Shown here in pieces: positions 8,640-54,191 of a DNA stretch of 61,733 nt. The notes under the pieces were generated by a model that was not told where the DNA came from, did no database searches, and saw only the letters and a program-made list of their open reading frames with translations. Position numbers and translations under genes: made by a program. The DNA is from Sphaerochaetaceae bacterium. GTDB taxonomy: Bacteria; Spirochaetota; Spirochaetia; Sphaerochaetales; Sphaerochaetaceae. The first letter of the stretch is position 1. The number at the start of each line of letters is the position of its first letter. The stretch is from positions 1 to 61,733 of the forward strand of contig JBQNBA010000001.1 in the NCBI GenBank assembly GCA_052170175.1, read 5' to 3'.

Positions 8640-8640
8640 T

Positions 8641-20543: not shown

Positions 20544-20618
20544 ACAAACTCTTGAATCTGATGTAAACTTCGCAGGAAGGGACAGGTGTTTTAATCAGTT
20601 TTATGGAATCATGTGAGA

Positions 20619-22199: not shown

Positions 22200-22325
22200 A
22201 AAACACAAAAAATAACAAAAAAGTAATATGGAAGGTGTTTTTTCATGGTGTTAGAATAAAATATGCAGGAATGTCCAAATATCTGGCATTTAGATTGCAA
22301 TTTATGTTGCATTTAGGAGGGAACC

Positions 22326-23348: not shown

Positions 23349-23378
23349 ATCGGCAGAACGACGGGATAGACGTTCATC

Positions 23379-25136: not shown

Positions 25137-25303
25137 ATGCCCAAGATGCATTTGCTTTCATTGCGGCGATGTGCAACAAGAAATCGATTGACAAAAAAAT
25201 GCAAAAAAGAACTAATAATTCGTGTTGTTGGCTGAAAAGCGGCTCCATATAATTATTTATAGTCGGGAAGTTCCGATCATTGTCTGCACAAGGAGGTAAT
25301 TGT

Positions 25304-26317: not shown

Positions 26318-26364
26318 GCATCTAGGAATCAGACTCGGGGAAAAGGCAGCGAATCGGAGGGAAT

Positions 26365-28838: not shown

Positions 28839-28860
28839 CTTGATCGCAAGGAGAAAACTA

Positions 28861-29538
28861 ATGAAACGCAGTGAAGTCAATGAATATATAAAGGAAGCGG
28901 AACGGATTCTTGCCGGCAATCACTTCTTTCTCCCGCAATGGGCAAGCTGGAAGCCAGAAGACTGGCAAAGGAACCGGGCGCTTTGTGACGAGGTCATTCA
29001 ATCCATGTTGGGATGGGACATAACGGATTTCGGAAGCGGGGATTACCTTAAAACAGGGCTTTTCCTTTTCACTCTCAGAAATGGCAATCCCAACCTCAAT
29101 AAAAAAGTCTATGCTGAGAAAATCATGATTGTAAAGGAAAACCAAGTTTGCCCGCTTCATTTTCATTGGATAAAGAATGAGGATATAATCAACAGAGGCG
29201 GCGGCACTTTGGTGTTCCAGCTTTATAAGGCTGCCGAGAACGGGGATCTCTCAGATGAGGATGTGGCAATACAGCTTGATGGAGTGACGACCAGGATAAG
29301 GCCAGGCGAGCCCTTGGAGATAGGCAATGGACAAAGCGTATCCCTTGCTCCGTATATTTATCACCGTTTCTTTGCAAAAGAAAAATCCGGATATGTGCTT
29401 GCGGGTGAGGTCAGCTCAATAAATGATGACAACACGGACAACAGGTTCTTTGAGCCGACTGGAAGGTTTCCCCAGATTGAAGAAGATGAGCCTGTATACA
29501 GATATTTGGTTGCGGATTACGAAAAATATCTGAAATAG
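28861..29538 (+). CDS. D-lyxose/D-mannose-family sugar isomerase (cupin)
   Basis: N-terminus MKRSEVNEYIKEAERIL...FFLPQWASWKPEDW and the cupin His block CPLHFHW match my recollection of this family. Start at ATG 28861 behind AAGGAG. Confidence 0.55.
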   Translation: MKRSEVNEYIKEAERILAGNHFFLPQWASWKPEDWQRNRALCDEVIQSMLGWDITDFGSGDYLKTGLFLFTLRNGNPNLNKKVYAEKIMIVKENQVCPLHFHWIKNEDIINRGGGTLVFQLYKAAENGDLSDEDVAIQLDGVTTRIRPGEPLEIGNGQSVSLAPYIYHRFFAKEKSGYVLAGEVSSINDDNTDNRFFEPTGRFPQIEEDEPVYRYLVADYEKYLK

Positions 29539-29857
29539 CAATATAAATTGCGCTTCATTCATTTGAGTGTTATCTTTCTCTTTTATTGATCATCGCACTG
29601 TTTGTTTCTTATTGACCCAAAGACAAAATCGTGGTTTATTGTATTTGACAGGCGGCGGAGCCGTCTTATCTTGAAGTGGAGGTGGCGTTGTGGATGACCC
29701 TCTGAGTTGCCAATGCGTTTTCAGTGACCTGCCAGGCCCATATTGCGCCACGAATCGCCGCTTGGCCCTCCGCTAAGCTTTCTTTCCGGGCGTCTTTGAG
29801 CCAGACGGGTCTTATTGCCGACCCTTGCTGGGGATTGTAAAGACGGAGGAAAGCAAA

Positions 29858-31219
29858 ATGAAGCAGATAAATCAGGCTCTCGTGAAGATTCTTGACGGGC
29901 TGCTTCTCAATGGGAAGACAGCCGCGTTCTCCGAGGTGCTTCTGACCATGAATCCCGCTGATGCGGGAATTTATCTCAACAGCATAGAGGAAGAGGAGCT
30001 GGACAAGGTTTTCACCCAGATATCCAGTTCAAATGCAGCTCTGCTTTTTGTCGAGCTTGACACGGCCAGGCAGGAAGCTCTGGTCAATGACATGGACGAT
30101 GACCAGCTTAGGGATATGCTGGAAGATTTGTATGCGGATGATCTCAGGGCTTTGATGAAGGGTCTTTCGGACGCTTCTGCGGAAAGGGCAAGAGGTCTGC
30201 TGAGCCTTGAGACCGTCAGGCAGCTTGATTTGATGATGAGCTACCCTGAGGACAGCATCGGAAACCTGATGAACACCGAGTTTCTCAGCCTCAGGCCATC
30301 GATGACAATCATGGAGGCGATTGCAAGCATAAGAAGCCAAGGCATGGACAAGGAGACTGTCAATGTCTGCTTCGTCACGGACAGAAGCAGGCGTCTGGTG
30401 GGTTCGGTTCAGCTGCGTTCTCTTGTGACCGCCAGGAATGATCGTCTGAGGATTTCGCAGATAATGGATGCCAAGCCAATATCGGTCAGAGCCGACGAAG
30501 ACAGGGAGGCGGTGTCTTTTGTATTCAAGAAATACGACCTCTCGGTGCTTCCTGTGCTGGACGATTCCGACAGGCTGGTGGGAATAGCGACTGTTGATGA
30601 TGCGATTGATGTGATAGACGACGAGGCGACAGAGGATATCCAGAAGATGGCGGCCATCATACCCTCCGAGACCCCTTATCTCCAGACTTCTGTCGTCAGG
30701 CTGTGGCTAAGCCGGATTCCCTGGCTTCTTACTCTCATGATAGGGGCCACGTTCACCGCCAAGGTCATAACCAGCTTCGAAGACGCTTTGGCCTCCTGCG
30801 TGATTCTGACAGCCTTCATCCCGATGCTGATGGACACCGCAGGAAATGCGGGGTCTCAGTCCTCTGTCACGGTGGTGAGAAGCCTGGCTCTGGGCGATCT
30901 GCGATTCGGCGACATCGTCAAGGTGCTGTGGAAGGAATTCAGGGTCGCTCTGATGTGCGCCGTAGTGCTTGTCGCATGCAATTTCGGCAAGCTGCTGCTT
31001 ATTGACAGGGTGACCGTTCCGGTTGCGTCCACAGTCTGCACGGCTCTTTTCATCGCAGTCATCATGTCCAAGCTTATCGGCTCCATGCTCCCGATTGCGA
31101 TTGGAAGCATAGGGCTTGACCCTGCTGTGATGGCCGGGCCTATTCTGACCACCATAGTCGATGCTCTTACGCTGCTTGTGTATTTCACCATTGCAGGATG
31201 GCTGCTCGGGATTGGATGA
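29858..31219 (+). CDS. mgtE: Magnesium transporter MgtE
   Basis: MgtE N-domain, a CBS pair, and the TM domain with MDTAGNAGSQSS. Start at ATG 29858 behind GGAGGA. Confidence 0.9.
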   Translation: MKQINQALVKILDGLLLNGKTAAFSEVLLTMNPADAGIYLNSIEEEELDKVFTQISSSNAALLFVELDTARQEALVNDMDDDQLRDMLEDLYADDLRALMKGLSDASAERARGLLSLETVRQLDLMMSYPEDSIGNLMNTEFLSLRPSMTIMEAIASIRSQGMDKETVNVCFVTDRSRRLVGSVQLRSLVTARNDRLRISQIMDAKPISVRADEDREAVSFVFKKYDLSVLPVLDDSDRLVGIATVDDAIDVIDDEATEDIQKMAAIIPSETPYLQTSVVRLWLSRIPWLLTLMIGATFTAKVITSFEDALASCVILTAFIPMLMDTAGNAGSQSSVTVVRSLALGDLRFGDIVKVLWKEFRVALMCAVVLVACNFGKLLLIDRVTVPVASTVCTALFIAVIMSKLIGSMLPIAIGSIGLDPAVMAGPILTTIVDALTLLVYFTIAGWLLGIG

Positions 31220-34568: not shown

Positions 34569-37500
34569 ATGGGTAACAAGAAAATGGTTACAATCGATGG
34601 CAATACAGCGGCCGCTCATGTGGCATATGCTTTCAGTGAAGTCGCTGCTATTTACCCGATCACCCCTTCTTCTCCTATGGGTGAGTATGCTGATTCCTGG
34701 GCAAGCGTCGGGAGGGTCAACATGTGGGGCAAGAAGGTCGACATCATGGAAATGCAGTCGGAGGCAGGGGCCGCCGGGGCTGTTCACGGCTCTCTTGCAG
34801 CAGGAGCCATGACGACTACCTTCACTGCATCTCAGGGGCTTCTTCTCATGATTCCGAATATGCACAAAATCGCCGGCGAGATGCTTCCGACTGTCTTCCA
34901 TGTCTCCGCAAGATCTCTGGCGGCCCAGTCGCTCTCAATCTTCGGCGATCATTCGGATGTCATGTCTTGCCGCAACACCGGGTTTGCAATGACGGCCGCC
35001 TCCAGCATTCAGGAGACAATGGACATGGCGCTTGTCGCCCATCTTTCCACTCTGAAATCATCAGTTCCATTCCTTGCGTTCTTTGACGGTTTCAGAACAT
35101 CGCATGAAATCCAGAAGGTCGAGGAAATCCCCTACGAGGACATGAAGAGCCTCATCGAGCCGCAGTATATCGAGAAATTCAGAGAACGCGCCCAGCGTCC
35201 TGACAAGCCTATGATAAAGGTTGCGGCGCAGAACGAAGACGTGTATTTCCAAGGGAGAGAGACTGTCAACAAGTACTACGATGAGCTTCCGGCCATCGTT
35301 CAGGATTACATGGACAAGGTCGCCAAGCTCACCGGCAGGCAGTATCACCTGTTTGACTATTTCGGAGCCGCCGATGCCACCGATGTCGTCATTGTGATGG
35401 GAAGCGGCGCTGATACATTCGAATGGGTTGTCAAATATCTCAACGCAAAGGGCGCCAAGGTCGGCGTTCTGAAAGTTCACCTCTACAGACCGTTCAGCGC
35501 AAAGCATTTTGTCGCCGCATTGCCCAAAAGCGTGAAGAGAATCGCCGTGATGGACAGGACAAAGGAGCCTGGCTCAATCGGAGAGCCGCTGTACCTTGAT
35601 GTGGTGGCCGCCCTTGACCAGATGAAGGTTGAAGGCATCAAGGTCATCGGAGGCCGCTTCGGGCTTTCCAGCAAGGATTTCCCGCCTTCGCACGCAAAAG
35701 CAGTGTTTGACCATCTGGCAGCTGACGGATTCAATGGCTTCACAGTCGGAATCAACGATGATGTCACCCACAAGTCAATTCCCGTGAAGGACAAGATTGA
35801 CGTCATCCCGCAGGGAGTCATCTCCTGCATGTTCTGGGGTCTTGGCTCCGATGGCACAGTTGGTGCGAACAAGAACTCCATCAAAATCATCGGTGACAAC
35901 ACCGATCAGAATGCACAGGCTTATTTCGCCTATGACTCCAAGAAGTCCGGCGGCATAACAATCAGCCATCTCCGCTTCGGGAAAGGCTCTCTGGATATGC
36001 CATGGCTCATCGATGCGGCTGACTTCGTAGCTTGCCACAATCCGGCTTACATAGGCCGCTATGATATGCTCGGTCCGCTTAAGGAGGGCGGCATCTTCCT
36101 GCTCAACAGCCAGATTCCGTCAGACGAGGTGTTCTACCATCTCACGGCAAAGGAGCAGCAGGAGATAATCGACAAGAAGATAAGATTCTTCAACATCGAT
36201 GCGCTGAGCATTGCGAACAAGGTCGGCCTTGGGGCCAGAATCAACACTGTGATGCAGGCCGCATTCTTCAAGATTTCCAAGGTTCTGCCTGAGAGCGAGG
36301 CTATCGCCCTCATCAAGAAGTACATTCAGAAGACATTCGCCAAGAAAGGCGAAGCTGTCGTCAACATGAACTGGGCGGCGGTGGATGAAGCATCGGCGGC
36401 TCTTCATGAGGTCGTTATTCCTTCCAAGGTTGATCCTAAGAAGGCTTTCGTTCCCAAGAAGCTCATAAGCGATGACGCTTCTGATTTCGCAAAGAACATA
36501 ATGCTGCCGATAATGCACCTTAAGGGAAACGACATCCCGGTGTCCGCCATGAGCATTGACGGAACGTTGCCGAGCGCAACAGCGAAGCTTGAGAAGCGCG
36601 GCGTCGCTCCGTTCGTTCCAGCATGGGACAGCACAAAGTGCATCCAGTGCAACCAGTGCGTGCAGGCTTGTCCGCATGCCGCCATCAGAGCGAAGCAGAT
36701 TGATCCGGCCGACCTCAAGGGCGCGCCTGATAACTTCACGACTCTCAAATCCACGACAAAGAACACGAAGGATCTTAAGTTCAGGATTCAGGTGTTCGCC
36801 GAGGACTGCATGGGCTGCGGAGTCTGCGTTGAGACATGTCCTGCAAAGGAGAAGGCTCTCAGCCTTGTTCCGTTAACGGATGCAATCTCCAGCGGTGCGG
36901 TTGAGGCTGCCAGCTTCTTTGAGAAGCTTCCTGAGAATGTTCTGGACGGCGCTCCCGAGACCACGGTCAAGGGGCTGCAGTTCAAGCAGCCGCTGTTTGA
37001 GTTCTCAGGCGCCTGCGCCGGCTGCGGCGAGACTCCGTATGTGAAGATGGTCACCCAGATCTGCGGCGAAAGGATGCTTGTCGCCAACGCCACCGGCTGC
37101 TCGTCAATCTACTCCGGAACTTTCCCATCGATTCCTTACTGCAAGAGACCTGACGGCCGCGGGCCGGCATGGGGCAACAGCCTGTTTGAGGATAACGCCG
37201 AATACGGGCTTGGCATGAGGCTTGCTGTGGATAACAACAGGACGCTGCTCAGAATGAAGGTCGAGCGGCTGTTGGAGCTTGGAACAACCGATGAGCTGTC
37301 TGCCGCGCTCAAGAAGAACCTTGAGCTGTGGGATGACACCACCGAGGCTTCAATCGATGCCCAGAAGGCCACCCAGAAGGTCCTGGATGGACTTTGCCCC
37401 TGCAGCCTCGAAGGAGAGCAGAAGGAGCTTCTGTCCAAGATAAAGGAGCTCAAGGACTACTTCACCGACAAATCGGTGTGGATAATAGGCGGTGACGGAT

Positions 37501-38108
37501 GGGCGTATGACATCGGTTACGGCGGCGTTGACCATGTGGTTGCATCCGGAAAGGATGTCAACATTCTGGTTCTGGACACCGAGGTCTACTCCAACACCGG
37601 CGGACAGGCTTCCAAGTCCACTCCGCTCGGAGCGGTCGCGAAGTTCGCCAATTCCGGCAAGCAGATTGGAAAGAAGAACATGGGATTCATGTGCATGAGC
37701 TATGGCTATGTCTACGTTGCTTCCATTGCGATGGGCTCCAACAGACAGCATGCGCAGAAGGCCTTGCAGGAAGCTGTGGCCTACAAGGGGCCGTCCATCG
37801 TCTTCTGCTATGCGCCTTGCATCAACCATGGACTTAACATGAGGTTCAGCCAGGTCGAGGAGAAGAAGGCTGTTGAAGCCGGCTACTGGCCGTTGTATCG
37901 CTACAATCCTCTGTTGGAAGAGGGCAAGCGGTTCAGCTGGGATACAAAGGAGCCGACAGCGGATTATCAGGAATTCATCAAGGGTGAAATCCGGTACTCC
38001 TCGCTGTACAAGACCAATCCCGCCAACGCTGATGAGCTGTTTGCCAAGGCAGAATCTGATGCGAAGCGCAGGATGGCCTTCTACAAGAATGTCGGTCAGG
38101 TCATGTAG
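34569..38108 (+). CDS. nifJ: Pyruvate:ferredoxin (flavodoxin) oxidoreductase, single-polypeptide type
   Basis: About 1179 aa. N-terminus [34 protein letters not shown], two ferredoxin CxxCxxCxxxCP motifs ([24 protein letters not shown]), and the TPP region [10 protein letters not shown]. Start at ATG 34569. Confidence 0.9.
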   Translation: [1179 protein letters not shown]

Positions 38109-38261
38109 GCCGGTTGCCGGCTTGATGCCATGCTGGACATCATAGGCTTGGTCGGGCGGTGGGCTTGCTGTCCTGACCGGGCTGCTATGAGCTTGGCTGA
38201 GGTATGATGCTTATGGCTATATGAAGCTTAAGCCGACCAATTTAAAGACCAAGCAGGGTCG

Positions 38262-39373
38262 CTATTAGGTAATTTGTTCCCGCCTTTTTCTGTAAGAGTT
38301 AGTTACAATTTTACGCCAAGGGTGATAAGGAGCAGGTTTCCACTTAGGTTTCTCGGTTTTTGGCGGTTGACGGGTAAGTTCTTCAATTTGTGTTTCTGTG
38401 ATTTCAGCATCTTTTGTTTCGTAGAACTTGCCATCGTAAATGGCAACTACGGTTTTATCAAATGTGAGATAAACATATAAATGTTCTTTAGGACTGATTC
38501 TGATGGTTTTGTTATTTGAGTCCTTCAGTTGAAGCTTTTTTCCAAGGAACTTAAAAGAAGAACCAAGGTCAGCTTTTCTATGGTAGAGAACAGAAAGGCA
38601 GTAATTGATTTCTTCTTCTATGGACTTGTGTTTATCTGGAATTTTTCTGTTTCAAAGATAGTTCTGTTATCTGAATGGAAACTTTCAGGAATCCCATATT
38701 CTAAAAGAATTTGTTTAAGCATGTTGTAATAGCCTTTCAGAGTTTCTTCCTTGTCAAAGTGCAAACCCATTGCAGTTCCGGTAGAATCATCAATAGCTTC
38801 ATGTAAAGCTGCTTTGGGATAATCAGGGCCAAACCATGGATGAAGAGAAGCATCTATTTGCAGCATCTCTCCAAGATTCTCTTTTCTTGGACGCAAAGGG
38901 TGAATATCTGCTTTCTTCTTTCTGTGCTGTTTCCTAGGTGATTTGAAGCCGGCTTCTGTAAGGATTCTGTAAAGGGAGCCGTATGTAATCCTGATGTTTT
39001 CATCTTCAACCAGTTTCTCCAAAAAGTGACTGAAATTAAAGCCGGCATATTTACCGGAATAGAGCTCGACTATTGTCTGCTCCAAAGCTGGATTTGTTTT
39101 CCAGGCTCTCTGTTTTCCCGTGTTGCCATGCTTGAAGCAATTCATCCCTGTTTCTTGATATTTGACTTTTAGCTTATTTGCATAACGTTTCGAAATTCCG
39201 AGTTGCATTGCTGCTTGTTTTGAGCTGATGGTTCCCTTTATTGCTCTTTTGATTATTCCTTCTACAAAACCATTTGAAAAATTCTTCATGTTTTTACCCC
39301 AAATAGAAGAATTATCAAAAATCAGGTGGGAACAATTAACCTAATAACTATGTGGGAACAAATAAACTAATAA
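38262..39373 (-). mobile_element. Decayed ISNCY-like insertion sequence (about 1.1 kb) with imperfect terminal inverted repeats
   Basis: The left end CTATTAGGTAATTTGTTCCC (38262-38281) matches the reverse complement of the right ends GGGAACAATTAACCTAATA (39329-39347) and GGGAACAAATAAACTAATA (39355-39373). The right IR is present twice in tandem. Confidence 0.6.
38265..39289 (-). pseudogene. ISNCY-family-like (HTH plus rve/DDE) transposase, frameshifted and internally shortened
   Basis: Residues 1-223 show an N-terminal HTH, FKHGNTGKQ, LQIDASLHPWF, AIDDSTG and GIPESFHSDNRTIFE. Reading then stops at 38618 and continues for about 115 codons in the +1 frame (switch near an A5 run) to the TAA at 38265. 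The region expected to carry the catalytic Glu appears to be missing. Confidence 0.6.
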
Positions 39374-39394
39374 CCACACCTGTTAGAATAGCAG

Positions 39395-39422
39395 TTGACA
39401 AATAAGAAATATCAGTTAGGAT
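39395..39422 (+). promoter_or_regulatory. Near-consensus sigma70 promoter TTGACA-N16-TAGGAT in front of the peptide/radical SAM operon
   Basis: TTGACA at 39395-39400 and TAGGAT at 39417-39422, about 37 nt before the small-ORF ATG. Confidence 0.45.
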
Positions 39423-39458
39423 AATAATATAAATAGTTTAGAAAAAGGGGCGGCAAGA

Positions 39459-39584
39459 ATGGTTTTAGTTAACGAAGCGTTAGTGTTTCCAAATACGGAA
39501 TTAGTTGACAATCCGCCGGAAGGTCTGATGTGCTTGGATGCCTGCAAGTGTATCGGGGATGATTTCTGTGAAATATGTTTATAA
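39459..39584 (+). CDS. Candidate RiPP precursor peptide, 41 aa, Cys-rich C-terminus (not in the ORF track)
   Basis: Manual translation gives MVLVNEALVFPNTELVDNPPEGLMCLDACKCIGDDFCEICL. SD AAAGGGG lies 8 nt upstream. The ORF is immediately 5' of a radical SAM/SPASM gene. Confidence 0.55.
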   Translation: MVLVNEALVFPNTELVDNPPEGLMCLDACKCIGDDFCEICL

Positions 39585-39628
39585 TCATCCAGTTTCAGCT
39601 CATTGCAAATTTATAGGGTGGAACTGTT

Positions 39629-40905
39629 TTGCTTAAGGAAAGCATATACAATAATGTTATTATAGATAATCACCAAACTTACATTTATAACTCTTTAACC
39701 AAGGCACGTATTTTACTTGAAAACGAGGAGGAATTCTCAAAAATAATTACCGATATAAAAGAGGGGAATGCAATTGGTTCAGCTTGTTTTAAAGAGCTTC
39801 AAATGCTTATTGATAATGGATTTCTTGTTGAGGATAGTATTGATGAACAAGAGGTCTTAAAGTATATCTTTTATAAACGTTTTTTTGAATCGGATAAGTT
39901 TGGACTAATATTAATGCCAACATTAAGGTGTAATTTTAATTGTCCTTACTGTTTTGAGAAATCAAGCAAGAACCTTATTTTTGAAGAGAATAGCGATTAT
40001 TTCGAGGTAATTTATAGATTTATTGCCAAAACATTCAAAGGTATAGACATTGTCATTTGAATTTTTTTGGAGGAGAACCTTTATTGCAAAAGAATCAGAT
40101 ATCCGGCTTTGCGTTAAAGTTCACTAGACTTGCTCAAGATGCCAAGTTGTCTTTTGATTCATCAATGGTTACTAATGGTTCCTTGATAGATGAAGGAGTG
40201 ATTCAGACATTAAAAATTTTAAATACTCGATTATTACAAGTTACAATTGATGGTGGTAAAGTACAGCACGATCAAACACGTTGTTATATGAATGGAGAGC
40301 CTTCGTTTGACCTAATAATTGCAAAAATAATCCAAGTTGTGCGGGCTATGGACAAAGACGGAATATGTTTTCTTATCCGATTCAATCTTAACAGTTCTTC
40401 CATTGATGAAGTGGAAAGCAGTCTAAACGTTATTCCATCGTCACTTCGAAGAAGGATTCATGTTATGTTTCGCCCAATCTTTAGTACTCCGCTATACCAT
40501 GTTAATAATAAAACCACTTATGATGATCTTGATGGTTTTAATTCAGTAGCAAGTGAAATGGGTTTTTTAATCTACAAGAACAAAAGAATGTTTCTTTCGT
40601 GCGAAGCTTGTGGAGATAAAAACTTCTTTCATGTGTTACCAGACCTTTCTCTATGGAAATGTATCAATGACTTTTCATTTCAAGAAGCCAGGATAGGGCA
40701 GATGCTGAAGGATGGTTCTATAAAATGGAATGTTCAACGGATAAACAACTGGTTCAAAAATGCAGATTTTTTTAACGACGAAAAATGTAAAGGTTGTTCT
40801 GTCGCCCCTGATTGTCTTGGGGGATGCATCAGGCAATATGCCATAACAAAAAAACGGCGCTGTGGTTCTTGCAAATCTTTATCTTCAGCATATAAATATA
40901 GATGA
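39629..40905 (+). pseudogene. Radical SAM/SPASM peptide-modifying enzyme (sactisynthase/ranthipeptide-synthase-like), split by a 1-nt frameshift at about 40056
   Basis: ORF1 (39629..40060) has an RRE-like N-terminus followed by CNFNCPYC (Cx3Cx2C). ORF2 (40057..40905) begins at FFGGEPLL and carries VTNGSL, VTIDG and Cys-rich SPASM blocks (CEACGD...WKC, CKGCSVAPDCLGGC). The two frames join if one T is added to the ttt at 40056-40058. Confidence 0.75.
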
Positions 40906-42614
40906 ACACTTGCATTCCGCATAAAGAGACCTTGATCATTCCGCTGGCTATATCGGCCATTTCGAGTGCTCTGGGAACGCTTCTTATTCTTGCAAGAAGC
41001 AGGATGATAGATTATGCAATAGCCAAGAGCAGTTCTCTGTTCATGTCAGCGCTTGTCTTTGTCGGCATGCTTCTGGCGATAAGCCTCTTGAACATCATTT
41101 CAGATCATAGACTTGAATCCTTGTGTTTGAAGGAAGGGAGAAAGCTGGATGATGGGAGAATGCGACACTGTTCAAGACTCCCATATTCATATCTCCAATC
41201 CACTGCTTTCGCTCAATTGAATGACCATGCATCTCAAGCCCAAGAGCTGGATTCCACTGTCAAGAAAAGGCTTGCTTCCTTGGTCAAGGATTCTGTTCTT
41301 CTTTTTTCAAGCCTCATCTTGGTTGCGACAATCAGTCCAATATCAGCAGCCGCAATGCTTCTTGCAATTAGCTTGGAATTGCTTGTAAACAAGATTTTGA
41401 TTAAAAAAACCGGAGGGCTTTGGGTTGATTATCGCAAGAATATCCTTAAGGCTGACTACTTGTCTTCAATGCTCCTCGATAGGGATTTCTCACAGGAAAG
41501 AAAGATTTTTGGATACAATGAGGAGATTGAAACCAGATTTAAAAAGGAATGGAAAGAAGGAAATGCCAAGAACACTCGTCTAGGGTTTTTAAGACTAAGC
41601 CTGGAGAGCCTGTCAAGCATCATTGATGCAGCATTTGCAGTGCTATTGCTCGTCCTTATGCTGCCCTCATTGATTAACAACAGCATAACCCTTGGCTTAT
41701 ACATCTCATTCTTCACTGCTTCTCTTTCTATGCTCAAAGCCAATGAGCGGCTTCTTGGCGCAATTCATGACTACGCCGCCTCAAAGGAGAAGATGGCCTC
41801 TTATGGCTTATTGATGAATGTCGCAGAAGAGAATGACCCGGATTCTGGAATAGTGCTGGAGAACTTTGAGAACCTGGAGTTCTCTCATGTTTCTTTTGCC
41901 TATCCAGAGGCAGACAAGCCGGCTTTAAACGATGTCTCATTTATTATGGAGAAAGGGAAAGGCTATGCGCTTGTAGGAGAGAATGGCAGTGGGAAAACAA
42001 CAATTGTCAAGCTTATGCTTGGGCTTTTCTCGCCATCAAGCGGACAGATCAGAATCAATGGGCGCGACCTGGCTTCATATTCCATCAATAGTATAAGGAA
42101 GGCTTTCGGCGTAGTCTTTCAAGACTTCTTTGCTTATCCCTTGACCATCAGAGAAAACATCACAGCGGGCAAAAACCTTGAGGAAGAGGACGTTCAAAGC
42201 GTTGTAGCCGCTCTTGATTTAACAAGCCAGATTCAGCGATTGTCTCTGGGGCTGGATACCAGCATGATGTTTCTGAAGGAAGGTAGCACCTGCTTGTCAA
42301 AGGGTCAATTGCAGAAGCTGGCAATAGCAAGATGCATTCTTTCCGAGTGTTCCTTGGCCATTCTTGATGAACCCAACAGCTCTCTGGATCCAATCATTGA
42401 GGCAGCTGTGTTCGAGGCCTATAGAGGAATGCTGAATGAAAGGGCAAGCCTTTTCATTTCCCATAGGCTAGGCTTTGTACGCATGGCAAAGAATATTCTT
42501 GTCTTAAAGGAAGGAAGGATCATTGCATCCGGTGATCATGAAGGGCTTATGCGAGAGTGTCCATACTACAATGAGATGTTCTCTAAGCAGAAGGCGCAAT
42601 ATGAGAAGGAATGA
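40902..42614 (+). CDS. ABC exporter, fused permease/ATPase (570 aa)
   Basis: N-terminal 6-TM-type domain, Walker A GENGSGKTT, signature LSKGQLQKLAIAR, Walker B AILDEP. No N-terminal C39 peptidase domain. Its ATG overlaps the radical SAM stop (ATGA). Confidence 0.85.
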   Translation: MNTCIPHKETLIIPLAISAISSALGTLLILARSRMIDYAIAKSSSLFMSALVFVGMLLAISLLNIISDHRLESLCLKEGRKLDDGRMRHCSRLPYSYLQSTAFAQLNDHASQAQELDSTVKKRLASLVKDSVLLFSSLILVATISPISAAAMLLAISLELLVNKILIKKTGGLWVDYRKNILKADYLSSMLLDRDFSQERKIFGYNEEIETRFKKEWKEGNAKNTRLGFLRLSLESLSSIIDAAFAVLLLVLMLPSLINNSITLGLYISFFTASLSMLKANERLLGAIHDYAASKEKMASYGLLMNVAEENDPDSGIVLENFENLEFSHVSFAYPEADKPALNDVSFIMEKGKGYALVGENGSGKTTIVKLMLGLFSPSSGQIRINGRDLASYSINSIRKAFGVVFQDFFAYPLTIRENITAGKNLEEEDVQSVVAALDLTSQIQRLSLGLDTSMMFLKEGSTCLSKGQLQKLAIARCILSECSLAILDEPNSSLDPIIEAAVFEAYRGMLNERASLFISHRLGFVRMAKNILVLKEGRIIASGDHEGLMRECPYYNEMFSKQKAQYEKE

Positions 42615-44346
42615 AACAGCCAGTGCGGTCTATGCTCTCAAGATTGCCTTTGCTTTCTGCCCGGGCGCCATTTCACTGATGCTTGTAGCAGGCTTGATGG
42701 AATGTGCTCTGGCTTCAATAGGGATTTTCCTGACAAGGAGTCTTTTTGAGGCTATCAGCATGATTGCTTCAAAGAGAGCTGGCTTAAACCAATATGCCAG
42801 CTTGTTCATCCTGTATGGCGTCTGGCTTATAGCTTCAGCCTCTGCTTCATTCTTGTTCAATCGCTTTATTGTTCAGTTCAGGCTGCTTCCCGAATTTGAA
42901 GCGAGGATGCTCAGGAAGCTTCATGACAAAGCCCAGAGGATACCTAATGAAGCTCTTCAATCACCTTCGGCTCTTCTGCTTATCAGGCAGGCCAAGACAT
43001 CAAGGCAAGTTGTCTTCAGATACGCACAGATATGCGTTAATATCTTGGTAGGAGTGCTTCAGGCCATTGCCATCACAGCTTCGGCCAGCGTCTTCTCGCC
43101 TTGGTTCATTCTTTTTTTGCCACTGGCGCTGCTGTCGGCTTTCATTGAAGGCTTTCAGGAAAGCAAGTTGCTGAAGAAGAACTTGATGATGATTGCCCAA
43201 TGCAAAAAGGAAGAAAGCGAGTATGAGAAAAGCCTCTTTGATGAATCTGCTTCCAAAGAGACAAAAGCATGTGGCTTGACAAGCTTGATTTTGCAGAAAT
43301 GGGGCTTGAGCAGAGAGAAGAGATATGAGACTGAGAATGCTCATAATCGCATGAAGAGCAGGCTCAAGCTACTTATGATGCCATTGCAAGTGCTTGGATC
43401 CAGTGCAGGGCTGCTGCTGGGAGTCCTGCTACTTGGCAGAGGAAGCATTGATTTTGCCTCGTTCACTGCATGTGTGACTGCCTTTTCCAGCATTGTTGCC
43501 AGCTATCGCCAAGTGCTGCAGATGTCGGTCAATCAGCGCCAGTATCTTATCATGCTCAAGCCTTTCCTGGATTATTGGAATCTAGAGGAGAGAGAGCAGG
43601 ATTCACACGATTGCGCAATAAGCCCTGCAGTCAAGATTCAGAATGTCAGCTTCGCTTATCCGGGTCAAGACAGCTTTGCCTTGAAGAATATCAACCTTGA
43701 GATTCCGAAAGGTTCAATAATAGCCATTGTTGGAGCCAATGGATCTGGCAAGACCACCTTGGCTCAGATAGCATTAGGTCTTTTCCGACCAACAAAGGGA
43801 GCTGTTTGCTTCGGACAGCATTGCGCCTCTGATCTCGGAGAAAGAAACATACACAGAAAACAATCCATTGTAAGCCAGGATTTCTGCAAATATAGGCTTA
43901 GCGTTGAGGATAATATCCGCCTTGGTGATATAAGAAGCGACAAGCCCATAGGAGAGGGCGATATTCAGCAGATGCTTGGCATCTCCATAACCAAGGGGAC
44001 GTTGCTTGGCAAGCAGCTTGGAGGCACAGATCTCTCGCAAGGTCAGTGGCAAAGGCTTTCATGTGCCAGAGGATTCTACAAGGATGCCGATTTCATCGCC
44101 ATGGATGAACCTACAAGCTCTATAGACCCTTTCGAGGAGAGAAGGCTTCTTGACAGCTTCTCCCAAGCTCTCAATGGTCGTACTGGTCTTATAATCACCC
44201 ATCGCCTTGCCCTGGCAAGGCTTGCTGACAGAATAATTGTGCTTGATGAAGGGCAGATAGTCGAAAGCGGCTCTCATGAGGAGCTTCTCAGCCAAGAAGG
44301 CCTGTACAACAGGATGTGGAAGAATCAGGCAGAGCTGTATGACTGA
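42601..44346 (+). CDS. ABC exporter, fused permease/ATPase (581 aa)
   Basis: Walker A GANGSGKTT, signature LSQGQWQRLSCAR, Walker B IAMDEP. Start at ATG 42601, overlapping the previous gene by 14 nt. Confidence 0.85.
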   Translation: MRRNETASAVYALKIAFAFCPGAISLMLVAGLMECALASIGIFLTRSLFEAISMIASKRAGLNQYASLFILYGVWLIASASASFLFNRFIVQFRLLPEFEARMLRKLHDKAQRIPNEALQSPSALLLIRQAKTSRQVVFRYAQICVNILVGVLQAIAITASASVFSPWFILFLPLALLSAFIEGFQESKLLKKNLMMIAQCKKEESEYEKSLFDESASKETKACGLTSLILQKWGLSREKRYETENAHNRMKSRLKLLMMPLQVLGSSAGLLLGVLLLGRGSIDFASFTACVTAFSSIVASYRQVLQMSVNQRQYLIMLKPFLDYWNLEEREQDSHDCAISPAVKIQNVSFAYPGQDSFALKNINLEIPKGSIIAIVGANGSGKTTLAQIALGLFRPTKGAVCFGQHCASDLGERNIHRKQSIVSQDFCKYRLSVEDNIRLGDIRSDKPIGEGDIQQMLGISITKGTLLGKQLGGTDLSQGQWQRLSCARGFYKDADFIAMDEPTSSIDPFEERRLLDSFSQALNGRTGLIITHRLALARLADRIIVLDEGQIVESGSHEELLSQEGLYNRMWKNQAELYD

Positions 44347-45237
44347 CAGAATGTTTCTAATCGGGGTGCATCTTCTTATCAATGTAGGTTCCAGAAGATT
44401 TGTCTATAATTCTAAGACTGGAACTATTTATGAAGTTGATACGTTGACTTGGGAAATCATTAAGTTTGCTGAAAACAATGGGGGTTTTTTTGACTCCAAT
44501 AAAAGGACAATGATAAAGCAACCCATGATTTGCATAGAAAATTCAAGAATGGTTGTGGAACATACGAGCAAGTTATAAAAGGACTAAAATCAATATTTCT
44601 TTTATCGCCAACAATCCGCTCTACCGTTACTCCTTATTTGTTGAATATAAGAAAGCCATTAATATCGTCAGTTCCCTTTTTTATTGACTTCACTTATGAA
44701 CTGTTCTTGCAAAAAAACTTAATTCCACAAATAAAACAGTTGTTATTTCAAATGTTGGGTATATTTTGCGACGATCTCTACAAAGGTTGTTATGTTGTGT
44801 GTAAAGAGAACCTAACGGTATATCAAGTTATTAAGCGTTATGCTTTTTTTCATAATAGACAATTTTTTTGTGATTCAATGCTGCATGGGATAGCGGTTGA
44901 TAAAGATGGACTTTTTTATCCATGCCATCGATTTTGTACTAATCGCTCTTTTAACATCGGAAATATTCATAGCGGGTTAGATGAAAAAAAGGTCATTGAC
45001 TTTTTATCCGTTATCAGTATTCAAAATAACGACACATGTAACGTTTGCTGGGCTCAGAATATTTGTGGAGGGTTTTGCCCATATGTTAATTTCTCTCTAT
45101 TTGGTAATTATCAAAAGCGAAACTATGAGCTTTGTGGCGTTTTTAAAGATTTTTATCAAGAAGTATTAAAATTATTTCTTTCATTAACTGATCAAGAAAA
45201 AATTGCTCTGGGATTGACACATAATATCAAAACTTGA
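44339..45237 (+). pseudogene. Second radical SAM/SPASM maturase, remnant lacking the Cx3Cx2C core
   Basis: Frame a (44339..44578) has an RRE/PqqD-like N-terminus (FVYNSKTGTIYEVDTLTWEIIKF). Frame b (open from 44503) starts mid-domain (THDLHRKFKNGCGTYEQVIKGLK) and ends in a SPASM domain (DGLFYPCHRF, CNVCWAQNICGGFCPY). No CxxxCxxC motif occurs in either frame. Confidence 0.6.
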
Positions 45238-45260
45238 AAACAATAGGGCAGGATTGGTTT

Positions 45261-46673
45261 TCAGAACCCTTTCGCTTCCCAGACTTGAAGCTGCTTCTCC
45301 ACGCTGGTCTTGGACGGGCCGCCCTCCGATGTGCGTCTGCCAAGGCAGTTGTCCAAGTCGATTGCTGTGAAAATATCGTTCTCAAACAGCCCGGAGAAGG
45401 TCTTGTAATCGTCAAGCGACATCGTTTCCAGCGTCTTGCCGTTTTTGATGGCCCAGCTGATGATTTCGCCGGTCAGCTTATAGGCTTCCCGGAACGGCAG
45501 CCCCTTGGCGCACAGGTAGTCGGCGCAGTCCGTGGCGTTTATGAAGCCTGTTGAGGCGGCGATGCGCATCGCAGTCTTGTTGACCGTCATGGTGGTTATC
45601 ATCGGAGCGAAGAGAGAGAGGCAATGCTTGACCGTGTCGATGCTGTCAAACAATGCTTCCTTGTCCTCCTGCATATCCTTGTTGTATGCAAGCGGAAGAC
45701 CCTTCATGGTTGTCAGGATTCCTATCAGATTTCCATAGACCCGGCCTGTCTTGCCGCGCACAAGCTCTGCCATGTCGGGGTTCTTCTTCTGGGGCATTAT
45801 GGATGAGCCTGTGCAGAATGCATCGTCAAAGGTTATGAAGCCGAATTCTGATGAGCAGTGGAGGATTATCTCTTCGCTCATCCGGGAAAGGTGCATCTGA
45901 ACCATGGATAGGGCGTAGCAGGCATCGGCAACGAAATCCCTGTCGGATACCGCATCGATGCTGTTGGGGATGATTGATGAGAACCCAAGCTGGGCGGCCG
46001 TCATCCTGCGGTCAATCGGGAACGAGGTTCCGGCAAGGGCCGCTGCTCCCAAAGGGGAGGAATCAGCGCTTTCCCGGGCGTTTTGCAGTCGTTTCATATC
46101 TCGCTCAAACATTCCGGCATAGGCGAGCAGGTAATGGGCGTACGTAACCGGCTGGGCCCGTTGAAGGTGCGTGTAGCCCGGCATGAGAGCATCTGTGCTG
46201 GCTCTGGCCTTGTCCACTATCGCCGAGATGAGCGATTTCAGCAGGGCCTCTGTCTCCTCAAGCTGGCCTTTCACGTGCATCCGCAGGTCAAGGGCGACCT
46301 GATCGTTGCGTGAGCGGGCGGTGTGAAGGCGCTTTGCAGGATTGCCGATTCTGCTGCCCATTTCGATTTCGATGAACGAATGGATGTCCTCGCTTGTCCG
46401 GTCGATTTCAAGCTTGCCGGAATCAATGTCGGATTTGATTGATCTCAGTGCCTTGATTATTGATTCTGCTTCGTTTTCTGGAATTATTCCTTGCTTTGCG
46501 AGCATCGTTGCATGGGCGATGGAACCGGCGATGTCCTCTTTGTACAGTCTGCTGTCAAAGGCTATGGAGCGATTGAAGGCATCGGCTTCCTTGTCGAGCG
46601 GCTTTGAGAATCTCCCCTCCCACAGCTTTGCCGACTTTGCCTTTGGCGCCTTGGCTCCTGGCTTCTTAGGCAT
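45261..46673 (-). CDS. argH: Argininosuccinate lyase
   Basis: LWEGRF N-terminus and the fumarate-lyase signature [12 protein letters not shown]. Confidence 0.9.
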
Positions 46674-47901
46674 TTGCTTTCTCCTTCATCATGGCCATGA
46701 CCTTTATCGGCAATCCGAAGAGATTGATGAAGCCTGTGCTGTCGGCTTGGTTATAAACCTCATCCTCGCTGAATGTGGCGATGTTCTCATCGTAAAGCGA
46801 GTTCGGCGATGATATGCCGTCCGGAATCATGTTGCCTTTGTAAAGCTTGAGCTTCACTGTGCCGGTGACAGTCTCCTGTGTCTTGTCGACAAAGGCGCTT
46901 ATGGCCTCCCGCAGCGGGGTGAACCACTTGCCGTAGTATGTCAATTCGGCGAACTTCTGGGCAACCAGTGATTTGCAATGCATTGTGTCTCTGTCCAGCG
47001 TTATGGTCTCCAGCAGCTCATGCGCCTTGTAGAGAATCGCTCCGCCGGGTGTTTCGTACAAGCCCCGGCTCTTCATGCCCACAAGGCGGTTCTCCACCAT
47101 GTCCAGAAGTCCTATGCCGTTCTCTCCGCCTATCTTGTTGAGGTATTCCACCATTGCGACGGGCTCCATGGTCTTGCCGTCTATCTTGACCGGTATGCCT
47201 TTCTCGAATTCTATGCAGATATCCGCAGGCTTGTCCGGGGCCTTGTACGGGGAGACGCCCATCTCCAGGAAGCCGGGCTTGTCGTACTGAGGGGTGTTGG
47301 CTGGATTCTCAAGGTCGAGACCCTCATGGGAAAGATGCCACAGATTCTTGTCCTTTGAGTAATTTGTGCTTTTGGTTATCTTGAGGGGGACGTTGTGCGC
47401 CTCTGCGTATTCGATTTCCTCTTCCCGGCTCTTGATGTTCCATACCCTCCAAGGGGCTATCACGGGCATTTCCGGAGTGACTGATTTTATGGCGAGTTCG
47501 AAGCGCACCTGATCGTTGCCTTTCCCGGTGCATCCGTGGCAGATGGCGTCCGCTCCCTCTTCAAGCGCGATTTTTGCAAGCTGCTGGGCAATCAGAGGTC
47601 TTGCAAGCGCCGTTCCCAGAAGGTATTCGCCCTCGTATTTCGCCCCTGCCTTTAGCGCCGGCCAGATGTAGTCGGTGACGAATTCTTTCTTTAAGTCCAT
47701 CACTATGAGCTTGCTTGCGCCGGTCGCCAGCGCTTTTTCTTCAAGCCCATCAAGCTCTGAACCCTGACCCACATCTCCGGACACGGCTATGACTTCGCAG
47801 CCTTTGTAGTTTTCCTTGAGCCATGGGATTATCACGGAGGTATCCAGACCGCCGGAATAGGCGAGAACGATTTTCTTGAGATTCTTTTTTTCTTGTTTCA
47901 T
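46666..47901 (-). CDS. argG: Argininosuccinate synthase
   Basis: [12 protein letters not shown]-binding motif, plus the [13 protein letters not shown] and SHEGL blocks. It overlaps argH by 8 nt. Confidence 0.9.
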
Positions 47902-51627: not shown

Positions 51628-53316
51628 TTACGCCATTAACCATTGCGCAACGCACTTTTGAATTTTATTATTCCAGTCGTTTTCATCGACAGCAAGCTCT
51701 TCTTGCCGCATAAGTTCGTCAAGAAACTGCTTGATATCATGCGGCGTAGGCTGTGAGGGATGATTGTATGAATTTTCCACAAGGCGCATGAACTGGTCTA
51801 ATTCAAGTGGTATTATCTTTGTTTTGCCACCATAATAAGATATATCCATTTTATTCAGTGCAAAAAAATGAGCTAAGCTCGCTTTGTTGATAGAAGGAGC
51901 AATGAACAGGCAGTATGCTTCTTTGCCGGTTCTTTTCTTTATTTGTCCCAGATGGCGTGCTACGGTTTCGCTCTCGCTCTCATATTGGCGTTGCCCTTGC
52001 TGCATCGTAACTTCAACTGAAAGCACAAAATCATTATAATCGCATTCAATGTCAGGCAGGTTGCCCGATGCAGTTGAAAGGGGTTGCCCTGCATCATCAA
52101 ACTTAAAGTTTCCTTTTATATTTCCACCGTCAAGCATTGTCATAGCTCGCCACGTATTGTATTCCAGCATCAATGGCGCATCATAGTATCCATCAGAAAT
52201 AATTTCATTATAGGTATCGATGATTTCTGAATATAAGGCATAAGACTTGATTGCTGTCACCTGTTCTTTTATAACAGCTTCTTTACGCTCCGCAATAATA
52301 GCATCGCGCATATCTTTTATTTCCTCTATGCTTTTCCCTGCGAGCTGCCTTTGTGTATAATCACTTATACGCATTAAATGGTCAATGACATTTGTAATAT
52401 TATCAACGTACAGCGTAGGAGCTGAGGCATTAAACAAGTAGTCTTTGTATCTTCCCTCATCATCGACAAACACAGGATTACGGTTTATATTTGCGAGGAT
52501 AAAATTAACTTCTTTCAACTTGTCAGAATAAAATGAAATGGAACGATTCTTATGGGAAATTGAAACAAGACCTGTATACCGAAGATATCTAAAACAAGCA
52601 TCTGCATAGTCCCGAGCATTGTTTTTCTTAGTGTTCAAAAACTTTTTCAGACTTTTGTCTGACGTTTCGCGTGTTCGGGTTTCCCCTGCATCTATAGCAT
52701 CGGCATATGTCTGTAAAAGAGCCTCGGTCCATTTTTCATCGATTAGCTTTTTGTATTGCCTCTTATGTGATTCTTTTTCTTTCCGGAATGAAATAATGGC
52801 ATTCTTGACCGTATCGTATTTTCTATAATCTGTCAGCATCAGTGCAAAAATCTTTAATTCATCAAAAGACAGGCTTTGCAAGTCTCTAATAAGCCTCATG
52901 ATTTCTAAATACGGCTTAATAAAGAAATTCCCTTCAATCTTCGTTGTTTCAATGTGATAAGGTGATGGTAATTGAAATTTCAGCAGCTGGCGCAGAAATG
53001 TTTCTTGCGGACGTTTTCCGAATATTAATGCCTTTCCCGCATCAGTCAATTCAATTTTCGGGGATAGTTCAATAAAGCCTAACGCCTTTGGCGCACGGTT
53101 GATTCTATCCCTTGCGCTGAAATCCTTGTTGTCTGACGAACCGCTACCCTCAAAGAACCCCGACCGAGCTAGAAGATTGATAAACTCAATTTGCGATTGC
53201 TTATTCCATTTTCGCCCTGCGAAATGTTCATTTAATAACTGTATCTCCGGTATTATTTTAGACGGAGTTCTAGGTGATGTTGTAAAGAATAAGGTTTTAT
53301 TTTTCAAGTATGCCAT
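51628..53316 (-). CDS. Putative type II/IIS restriction endonuclease (AlwI-family-like), 562 aa
   Basis: It sits 17 nt downstream of a Dam-like methyltransferase gene in an AT-rich block. The N-terminus FFTTSPRTPSKIIPEI...WNKQSQIEF resembles my recollection of AlwI-family N-termini. The C-terminal third has a PD...EVT nuclease-like motif (LPDIECDYNDFVLSVEVT). Confidence 0.5.
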   Translation of the reverse strand: MAYLKNKTLFFTTSPRTPSKIIPEIQLLNEHFAGRKWNKQSQIEFINLLARSGFFEGSGSSDNKDFSARDRINRAPKALGFIELSPKIELTDAGKALIFGKRPQETFLRQLLKFQLPSPYHIETTKIEGNFFIKPYLEIMRLIRDLQSLSFDELKIFALMLTDYRKYDTVKNAIISFRKEKESHKRQYKKLIDEKWTEALLQTYADAIDAGETRTRETSDKSLKKFLNTKKNNARDYADACFRYLRYTGLVSISHKNRSISFYSDKLKEVNFILANINRNPVFVDDEGRYKDYLFNASAPTLYVDNITNVIDHLMRISDYTQRQLAGKSIEEIKDMRDAIIAERKEAVIKEQVTAIKSYALYSEIIDTYNEIISDGYYDAPLMLEYNTWRAMTMLDGGNIKGNFKFDDAGQPLSTASGNLPDIECDYNDFVLSVEVTMQQGQRQYESESETVARHLGQIKKRTGKEAYCLFIAPSINKASLAHFFALNKMDISYYGGKTKIIPLELDQFMRLVENSYNHPSQPTPHDIKQFLDELMRQEELAVDENDWNNKIQKCVAQWLMA

Positions 53317-53333
53317 ATGCTCACCCTTTCATT

Positions 53334-54191
53334 TTAATAGTTCTTGACAACAATATGAAGTTTATCATTATTAAAACGATTCTTAATATTCACAGCGTAG
53401 TTTTTATAATATTCATCAAAAATATAATTACTGTATAGCTCCGTCGTTAATGGGGTTTTGCCTATAACCATAAGCGCACGGCATGAAAGATTTTTAAAAT
53501 CAGCAGCTAACCGTCTATGCTCTGTTTCGTCAAAACCGTTCATCATGTCAATGTTGCCATAATCATTAAACACACAATCATACGGAGGGTCGAGAAAAAT
53601 AAAATCATTCTCTCCAGCCATATCAAATATTTTGCTATAATCAAGATTATAAATCTCTGCACCACGCAATAAATAACTATGCTGTGCTGTAATTAATTGC
53701 GTATTAAGATTAGGATAGTGTCCGAATGGCACATTATATTCTCCGTTGCTATTATATCTAATCATGCCGGAATATGCTGTCTTATTAATAAAGAAATACA
53801 CGACGCTGTCTAGATAGCTACCATCGGGGTGGTTAAAAAGCTCTCGCATTTTATAATATAAATCTTCATTCGCATTGGGCAAGTGTTCGTCGGGTTTCTG
53901 CGATTTCAACTGCTTGAAAGCAATTTGGTTGTCCTCATATATGCGCTGTATTTTATCAAGCTGCATTCGCATTTCCTGGTAATTATCGCGCAATTGACGA
54001 TAGAATAACGCAAGTCGTTTATTGACATCATTAATAATGGCTGATTCAGGCTCAAGAAAGAAATAGACAGCTCCGCCACCAAAGAATGGTTCAATATATC
54101 TGTCAAAGTCATCTGGGATATAATGTAGAAAGCGAGGGATTTCCCGCGATTTTCCACCTCTATATTTTAACACTGGGTTCATTCGCGGCAC
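53334..54191 (-). CDS. Dam-like (D12 class, alpha-group) N6-adenine DNA methyltransferase
   Basis: KYRGGKSREI, motif I EPFFGGGAVYF and motif IV FLDPPYD, in alpha order. Confidence 0.85.
   Translation of the reverse strand: MPRMNPVLKYRGGKSREIPRFLHYIPDDFDRYIEPFFGGGAVYFFLEPESAIINDVNKRLALFYRQLRDNYQEMRMQLDKIQRIYEDNQIAFKQLKSQKPDEHLPNANEDLYYKMRELFNHPDGSYLDSVVYFFINKTAYSGMIRYNSNGEYNVPFGHYPNLNTQLITAQHSYLLRGAEIYNLDYSKIFDMAGENDFIFLDPPYDCVFNDYGNIDMMNGFDETEHRRLAADFKNLSCRALMVIGKTPLTTELYSNYIFDEYYKNYAVNIKNRFNNDKLHIVVKNY

Follow-up and report, generated by a model that had tools for sequence, protein, structure and literature searches.

A candidate thioether-type RiPP cassette with damaged maturase genes and a retained exporter pair in a Sphaerochaetaceae genome

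Does a peptide-maturation cassette that appears to have all of its genes still make its product, and if it does not, what keeps the rest of it in the genome? The question is raised by a block at 38.2–45.25 kb of a 61,733-bp contig from a Sphaerochaetaceae metagenome-assembled genome (MAG); this contig is the whole stretch of DNA that was analysed and is called the window here. Between nifJ and argH, the block holds a gene for a short Cys-rich peptide, a gene for a radical S-adenosylmethionine (rSAM) enzyme with a SPASM domain (rSAM1), genes for two ATP-binding cassette (ABC) exporter proteins (ABC1 and ABC2) and what had been read as a second SPASM-domain enzyme (rSAM2). The original prediction saw in this the operon of a peptide that is synthesized ribosomally and then modified post-translationally (RiPP). 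The promoter-like site, the peptide gene, ABC1 and ABC2 are all intact in the window, and both maturase genes are inactivated, so the expectation that the operon works in this genome was not borne out. We think it probable that the locus is a thioether-type rSAM RiPP cassette, present here as a non-producer allele that has retained its exporter pair, probably for immunity.

Recurrent maturase loss beside a retained exporter pair

What damages rSAM1 is the loss of a single nucleotide from an A-run near 40027, which leads to a stop at 40058 and splits the gene into two open reading frames (ORFs; 39629–40060 and 40057–40905, 143 and 282 aa). CNFNCPYC, FFGGEPLL and the Cys-rich C-terminus that had been listed for the first rSAM gene are all encoded in the window; what does not stand is a single unbroken gene. 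The run is A5 in locus L009 and A4 in the window, in L010 (DRR582176) and in L011 (ERZ14236300), and because A4 recurs in three assemblies from different samples we regard the frameshift as a real allele. An assembly error was rejected on this evidence, on the A5 run of the fourth assembly and on the nature of the second lesion, a 469-bp deletion in rSAM2. Rescue by slippage also seems unpromising, as an A4 run is too short for it to be efficient.

The deletion in rSAM2 corresponds to L009 positions 5187–5655. It took about 156 codons (residues ~56–212), including CNMSCDYC and GFMGGEPLL, and shifted the frame; the N-terminal stretch and the SPASM-bearing C-terminal stretch now lie in different frames, without a CxxxCxxC motif. 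The supposed second enzyme is thus only a remnant, and it matches only positions 120–328 of the PapB profile and the SPASM model TIGR04085. The window therefore has no maturase with CxxxCxxC in an intact frame, since rSAM1 is frameshifted 3′ of its motif and rSAM2 has lost its own, and it is from these two lesions that we conclude that the cassette of this MAG is a non-producer allele. The intact counterpart is L009 (SRR21874894), which is 99.8% identical to the window over 39321–47114 and has an identical peptide, with rSAM1 (425 aa), ABC1, ABC2 and rSAM2 (455 aa) all uninterrupted and CxxxCxxC in an intact frame. An exact-peptide look-up found the peptide unchanged in three other assemblies.

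The window belongs to a series of loci in which maturase genes were inactivated by independent events. The deletion of A in rSAM1 is shared by the window, L010 and L011, and L010 in addition carries an inserted CT in rSAM2. In L012, from a lineage 12% diverged, a T is missing from the FFGGEP codons of rSAM1, and in L094 both maturases are truncated by insertion sequences (ISs). The peptide gene and both maturases are completely deleted in L093 and in L001–L005. In a second host lineage, whose intact form is L098, rSAM1 has gained an A (L097) or is deleted (L099), and in both loci rSAM2 is replaced by a duplicated regulator gene. In a third lineage (L103) an intact ABC pair is preceded by no more than a peptide-like scrap and the last ~40 codons of rSAM1. 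At every one of these maturase-damaged loci both ABC genes have full-length ORFs. Among the loci ascertained via the peptide, the ABC pair is intact in all six and each maturase in two of six. Between the window and L093 the ratio of nonsynonymous to synonymous divergence is 0.18 for ABC1 and 0.18 for ABC2 (overall range 0.16–0.21). Hence the maturases of the cassette have been destroyed repeatedly while purifying selection has preserved the ABC pair, even where a lineage has neither the peptide nor the maturases.

Some of these loci have features of their own. The protein in the rSAM2 position of L097 (14080–15900) and L099 (12915–14735) is 606 aa long, and its gene shares about 71% DNA identity with that of a 597-aa HTH_3 protein upstream of the cassette. 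In L094 the ABC pair is 87% identical and is bracketed by two different IS transposase genes (118–1104 and 5016–6170), one of the rve/HTH_38 type and one InsA-like, which truncate rSAM1 and rSAM2; given this arrangement, the exporter pair may be able to move as a composite element.

The sister lineages also record how the site was altered. In L093 and L001–L005 the gene order is nifJ, an AraC/GyrI (Rob/SoxS-like) regulator, ABC1, ABC2 and argH, without the peptide gene and the rSAM genes, and scars are found on both sides of the ABC pair. On the left, after the promoter hexamers and the ribosome-binding site, the peptide ORF is reduced to its first few codons (ATGGTTTT...), which are fused to the last 12–14 nt of rSAM1; on the right, ABC2 is followed by the rSAM2 start and a short remnant that encodes ITIGFMGGEP. 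These junctions indicate that the loci are deletion derivatives of a complete cassette. Furthermore, synonymous divergence (dS) between the window and L093 is the same for the ABC genes (ABC1 0.33, ABC2 0.29) as for the flanks (nifJ 0.33, argG 0.29), which argues that the ABC pair was vertically inherited at this site and, taken with the scars, that the cassette was already there in the common ancestor. A fresh acquisition tied to the neighbouring IS, as had been suggested, does not agree with either observation. The part of that suggestion which holds up is horizontal acquisition as such: GC content at third codon positions (GC3) is 0.29–0.52 in the cassette versus 0.68 in host genes, and a foreign origin is likely, although one that is old relative to these lineages rather than recent and IS-linked. 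The closest intact relatives occupy low-GC loci, one of which is labelled Lachnospiraceae.

Locus L002 has a more complicated record. Its flanks and its AraC/Rob-like regulator are 99–100% identical to those of L093 and its ABC block only 88–92%; that block (3591–7082) is 99.4% identical to window 40892–44383. Judged from these identities, and from limits that coincide with the limits of shared homology, the L002 block is an allelic replacement by a producer-type allele.

An unnamed precursor family and its predicted maturases

The unannotated 41-codon ORF with a Shine–Dalgarno sequence that had been pointed out upstream of rSAM1 is present as described (Table 1), and peptides like it accompany the homologous maturases. 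Specifically, an invariant core, EGLMCLDACKCIGDD[F/L]C, is found in peptides directly upstream of rSAM1 homologues that are 50–54% identical (L006, L098). Among more distant homologues (34–49% identical) whose loci include upstream sequence, 13 of 14 are preceded by a short ORF ending ...LDAC.C[TI]G[ND]..., in MAGs labelled Lachnospiraceae, Bacilli, Clostridia, Treponemataceae, Muribaculaceae, Methanothrix and one Nanoarchaeota bin. When 860 kb were searched in six frames, the DAC.C motif occurred 13 times within 300 nt upstream of the 17 closest homologues and six times in all the remainder. A profile search of 1.8 billion representative proteins added family members, for example ...EGLMCLDACLCIGDDFCSAQD and ...QGLMCLDACRCTGNC..., and the family consensus comprises a leader, MELxNEAL...EGLM, and a core, (C)LDACxC[TI]G[DN]. 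A precursor gene with a leader and a Cys-rich core is thus found next to the maturase across homologous loci, which answers the question, posed with the original prediction, of whether related rSAM genes follow similar Cys-rich peptides. Because the core is invariant beside maturases that are only 50–54% identical, the small Cys-rich ORF is predicted to be a genuine precursor of an unnamed family. Membership of a named precursor family was rejected, as no Pfam or NCBIfam model matches the precursor or its homologues even at E = 10, in keeping with the earlier impression that the peptide stands outside such families. Full-text literature searches on the core motif or the nearest maturase families returned nothing relevant.

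The order peptide–rSAM1–ABC–ABC–rSAM2 recurs in L006, L098, L100 and L009, and the claim that this is the layout of a RiPP cluster is well founded. The best full-length NCBIfam matches of intact rSAM1, from its N-terminal domain through SPASM, are TIGR04463 (9e-52), CefB (Cys-every-fifth; 5e-45) and Clo7bot (CtpM; 6e-44), all of which are defined as maturases of short Cys-rich peptides. The scores of 176, 154 and 150 bits lie far below the curated cutoffs of 525, 600 and 600, placing rSAM1 outside TIGR04463, and the window precursor matches no model. No experimental paper on these three families was found in the literature searched. The possibility that the enzymes are instead anaerobic sulfatase or cofactor maturases was considered with the original prediction. 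Against the sulfatase maturase model rSAM1 scores 63 bits and rSAM2 101 bits, and for rSAM1 the RiPP families are far ahead (9e-52 vs 2e-17); moreover, no sulfatase or cofactor gene is present at the locus, and the best family match is not anSME, PqqE, MftC or NirJ. The SPASM model TIGR04085 (cutoff 27 bits) is passed both by the rSAM1 C-terminus (37.9 bits) and by the rSAM2 remnant (49.6 bits). Across the rSAM1 family, three Cys of the rSAM motif and seven of the C-terminal region are invariant. Plasmid carriage of the cassette was considered and rejected, as plasmids yielded rSAM1 homologues of less than 30% identity at best.

For both maturases the closest solved structure by sequence is that of CteB, the SCIFF/thermocellin enzyme (PDB 5WGG/5WHY), whose architecture of a RiPP recognition element (RRE), an rSAM domain and SPASM with two auxiliary clusters resembles the one predicted for them. 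An AlphaFold2 (AF2) model of homologue P0015, 53% identical to rSAM1, has a mean pLDDT of 92.6 and an N-terminus of four β-strands followed by two helices, a short strand and a third helix; its best PDB match is the RRE-bearing CteB 5WGG, with a TM score of 0.70 over the full length. On this model the N-terminus of rSAM1 appears to be RRE-like, a putative leader-binding domain. The likeness to CteB has its limits: identity is only about 19%, the window precursor is unrelated to SCIFF peptides, and the SCIFF family model gives 67 and 167 bits versus a cutoff of 425.

The best curated match of intact rSAM2 is the ranthipeptide maturase family PapB (NF047865), at 256.5 bits, under the cutoff of 340 and thus outside that family. 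PapB, with PapA, belongs to the freyrasin system of Paenibacillus polymyxa and links Cys-S to Asp-Cβ at CX3D motifs (PMC9413430). A CX3D site is likewise present in the cores of the two-maturase loci (the window, L006, L098 and L100), as CIGDD in the window and CTDPD in L100. Unlike freyrasin, the window core has a single such site rather than six, the constant partner of the peptide family is a second, unrelated maturase (rSAM1), and rSAM2 has an additional RRE-like region of about 95 residues at its N-terminus, outside the 330-position PapB profile.

The two fused permease/ATPase ABC genes had been described correctly, and both are intact. Neither product has a C39 peptidase domain; no peptidase Pfam model matches, and the proteins align only to the permease/ATPase part of TIGR03796 and TIGR01193, from about profile position 150, so they lack the N-terminal peptidase domain that defines peptidase-containing ABC transporters (PCAT) of the SunT type. 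In a search of 5.8 billion proteins the nearest ABC1 relatives outside its own clade are 34–39% identical, with no closer ABC relatives outside such clusters, and all of those whose context was examined (L006, L013, L100 and L103) sit in homologous RiPP cassettes or decayed copies of them. ABC2 and the second ABC gene of L006, and likewise that of L013, are each other's best matches, at 38–40%. The idea that the window ABC genes are not orthologous to those of the RiPP clusters was rejected, the reciprocal best matches being ABC1 with ABC1 and ABC2 with ABC2.

It is informative to set the cassette beside known systems. Thuricin CD (TrnC/TrnD with TrnF/G) and the sporulation killing factor (SkfB with SkfEF) come from thioether RiPP loci in which an ABC transporter accompanies one or more rSAM maturases, and the Skf transporter additionally gives the producer its immunity. 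To our knowledge their precursors are different from that of the window and orthology is not detectable; the exporter here is, unlike theirs, a pair of fused half-transporters encoded between two maturase genes. The best reading of these comparisons is that the cassette would be an uncharacterised rSAM/SPASM member of the thioether-type RiPP class, which takes in sactipeptides, with Cys S linked to Cα, and ranthipeptides, with S linked to Cβ or Cγ. The class has many members: nearly 15,000 RiPP-associated rSAM proteins are gathered in one published compendium (PMC10288494).

In the mechanism that we propose for an intact cassette, one promoter upstream of the peptide gene would drive all of the genes, and the RRE-like N-terminus of the maturases would bind the conserved leader, M-[EV]-L-[ILV]-N-E-A-L...EG-L-M. 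Both rSAM enzymes would then form intramolecular crosslinks in the 13–17-residue core, C-L-D-A-C-K-C-I-G-D-D-F-C. The first may act on the LDACxC segment common to the whole wider family, and at the Cys-X3-Asp site, which reads CIGDD in the window and CTDPD in relatives, the second would probably join Cys-S to Asp-Cβ as a thioether; such PapB-like action is proposed because PapB is the best match of rSAM2 and CX3D is present in the two-maturase cores. The product would leave the cell through the heterodimeric, peptidase-less ABC pair.

Reasons for keeping the exporter

The loss of maturases set against the retention of the exporter points to a benefit of the ABC pair that does not depend on production, most likely immunity against the mature peptide of neighbouring producer strains. 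If the exporter does confer immunity, it would follow that the product is an antagonistic peptide and that this strain is an immune non-producer. A number of observations weigh against parts of this account. For several of the loci ABC1 was itself the search query, and this introduces a bias towards intact ABC genes. Where the sister loci lack the rSAM genes, the exporter pair stands beside the Rob/SoxS-like AraC/GyrI regulator, an arrangement that fits co-option for general efflux equally well. The cassette has no leader protease. The link between rSAM2 and CX3D is not strict, as a CX3D core is found in L013, whose contig carries no rSAM2. Finally, both maturases fall under every curated family cutoff, so that the thioether, its sites and the carbon attacked are all inferences.

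The main rival to immunity is that the ABC pair has been recruited to general efflux of drugs or toxins, a role unrelated to the peptide, with the maturases and the peptide gene decaying as junk. We consider this unlikely, yet it has real points in its favour: in L093 and L001–L005 the pair adjoins the regulator, which is divergently oriented, carries a GyrI-like ligand domain and finds its best family matches in SoxS, Rob, RamA and MarA, activators of efflux pumps, and models of MsbA and of multidrug exporters are also among the matches to the ABC proteins. What such co-option does not account for is that the closest of the ABC1 and ABC2 relatives examined beyond the Sphaerochaetaceae clade sit in homologous RiPP cassettes or remnants, that the window, L097 and L099 keep the peptide gene and its promoter along with the ABC pair, and that the pair is also retained in hosts without the AraC regulator. 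It could also be that the product is a signalling (quorum-sensing-like) or metal-binding peptide and that maturase loss reflects social cheating or a relaxed need. The core is small, secreted and rich in Cys and Asp, no dedicated immunity protein accompanies the exporter, and producers and non-producers coexist in related populations; we nonetheless find this quite improbable, because it leaves unexplained both the purifying selection on the exporter where the peptide gene is deleted (L093, L001–L005) and the replacement of a resident ABC allele by a producer-type one. The original expectation, a working thioether-RiPP operon that arrived recently with its flanking IS and now makes and exports a crosslinked peptide, is suggested by the presence and tight coupling of all the expected parts, by foreign composition, by the adjacent IS remnant and by the intact allele within the species. 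In view of a frameshifted rSAM1 seen in three independent assemblies, an rSAM2 without CxxxCxxC and GGEPLL, a run of A4 that makes slippage rescue unlikely, ABC dS values that equal those of the flanks and sister-lineage scars that put the cassette at the site ahead of the lineage split, it is hardly credible for this MAG.

The preferred reading, immunity in a non-producer, invites a more general proposal, which we regard as possible but short of probable. Peptides made by two maturases, with a CLDACxC...D..C core and linked by thioethers, would be antagonistic among gut anaerobes, the exporter would give immunity, and a polymorphism of producers and immune non-producers would be ongoing in parallel in spirochaete and low-GC (probably Firmicutes) hosts. 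In that tentative proposal the intact, frameshifted, internally deleted and exporter-only alleles form one series, and the producer-type exporter would have been imported into exporter-only strains. A comparable situation is known from the pneumococcal blp locus, where non-producer (‘cheater’) strains retain orphan bacteriocin-immunity or transporter genes; there too, producers, broken producers and strains that keep only protection or export genes are found within one species. Unlike blp, the present case is known from comparative genomics alone and concerns an rSAM RiPP in uncultured gut anaerobes. Repeated maturase loss, exporter retention and allelic replacement might serve as a testable signature of immunity-driven social dynamics in such organisms.

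Within the area of RiPP discovery, the analysis defines an unnamed precursor family with a dedicated RRE–rSAM–SPASM maturase in gut and rumen MAGs of several phyla. The sub-family that combines a PapB-like second maturase with CX3D would offer a compact substrate of 13–17 residues on which two radical enzymes act on one core, and the L009 allele, L098 and L100 are ready templates for expression. The locus is also a warning to annotation against calling biosynthetic clusters by gene content, as the cluster here looks complete and is dead.

Setting of the locus and neighbouring islands

The features of the block and its flanks are collected in Table 1. The impression of an AT-rich block between nifJ and argH is confirmed by GC content in 500-nt windows, which is 0.32–0.47 across the block versus 0.51–0.57 in nifJ and argH/argG; nifJ is 91.7–93.3% identical at the DNA level to its counterparts at the sister loci. 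The genes of the cassette overlap as had been noted, through an ATGA at 40902 and overlaps of ABC1 with ABC2 at 42601–42614 and of ABC2 with rSAM2 at 44339–44346. Rfam and tRNA scans of the window gave no RNA genes.

Table 1. Features of the examined block and its chromosomal flanks in the window
Feature	Position	Strand	Details
nifJ (pyruvate:ferredoxin oxidoreductase)	34569–38108	+	Left chromosomal flank; L093 orthologue with POR_N, PFOR_II, POR, EKR and TPP_enzyme_C domains
Degraded ISNCY-family insertion sequence	38208–39391	-	Transposase fragment 38618–39289; NF033594 match
Promoter-like site, TTGACA-N16-TAGGAT	39395–39422	+	10/12 positions, best in region
Precursor peptide gene, intact: MVLVNEALVFPNTELVDNPPEGLMCLDACKCIGDDFCEICL	39459–39584	+	41 codons; AAGGGG upstream (purine-rich ribosome-binding site)
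rSAM1 pseudogene	39629–40905	+	RRE-like N-terminus, radical-SAM core (CNFNCPYC), SPASM; frameshifted
ABC1, fused permease/ATPase half-transporter, intact	40902–42614	+	570 aa; ABC_tran and ABC_membrane domains
ABC2, second fused permease/ATPase half-transporter, intact	42601–44346	+	581 aa; ABC_tran domain
rSAM2 remnant, PapB-like rSAM/SPASM maturase	44339–45237	+	469-bp internal deletion between 44504 and 44505
argH (argininosuccinate lyase)	45261–46673	-	Right chromosomal flank, convergent; NCBI protein name; orthologues with Lyase_1 and ASL_C2

The IS remnant that had been noticed ahead of the cassette is a truncated and frameshifted ISNCY transposase. Its fragment matches NF033594 at 5.9e-61 and 206.7 bits (cutoff 250) over profile positions 2–202 of 368, and a C-terminal-like stretch is present in another frame. 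Homology of the window with L002 and L093 stops at 38208 and restarts at 39392, and the IS occupies the place of the Rob/SoxS-like AraC/GyrI regulator of the sister lineages; no remnant of an AraC regulator was found beneath the IS in the window. The near-consensus promoter that had been proposed next to it fares less uniformly. The site is the best in the region, but promoter-like sites number 15 there versus 14.2 ± 4.0 in shuffled sequence, so their frequency is no more than that of shuffles. We credit the site as a likely promoter because both of its hexamers are unchanged in the diverged L093 and L002, although the surrounding 75-bp block is only 85–87% identical; in these loci it lies directly upstream of ABC1.

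GC content is lowered unevenly within the cassette, to 0.33 in the rSAM genes and 0.44 and 0.475 in the ABC genes, and GC3 is 0.29 in both rSAM1 and rSAM2 and 0.49–0.52 in ABC1 and ABC2. In L093 the orphan ABC genes have a GC3 of 0.59–0.61, and in L098, whose cassette belongs to a different host lineage, the values of all four genes fall within 0.20–0.28. This step in GC3 sits within a single operon (window 39629–45237; L009 310–6388); one idea is that the ABC block may have recombined more often and undergone GC-biased conversion. The step might suggest that rSAM genes were inserted around a native ABC pair. That idea was rejected, as the rSAM-less loci retain scraps of the peptide gene, rSAM1 and rSAM2 and the same five-gene order is found in unrelated hosts.

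The contig carries other stretches of unusual composition. In a second AT-rich island (51628–54191, minus strand; GC about 0.37) lie genes for a restriction endonuclease of the AlwI family (PF09491, 6e-60) and an N6-adenine methyltransferase of the D12 class (PF02086, 2e-36), which probably form a type II restriction–modification pair. At 7911–9708 (plus strand; GC 0.42–0.44) a DUF6577 protein is followed by an AbiEii nucleotidyltransferase toxin homologue, which by its sequence looks like an AbiE-like type IV toxin–antitoxin or abortive-infection pair. Over the 10 kb at 20000–30000, GC is 0.45–0.48 versus about 0.52–0.55 elsewhere in the contig.

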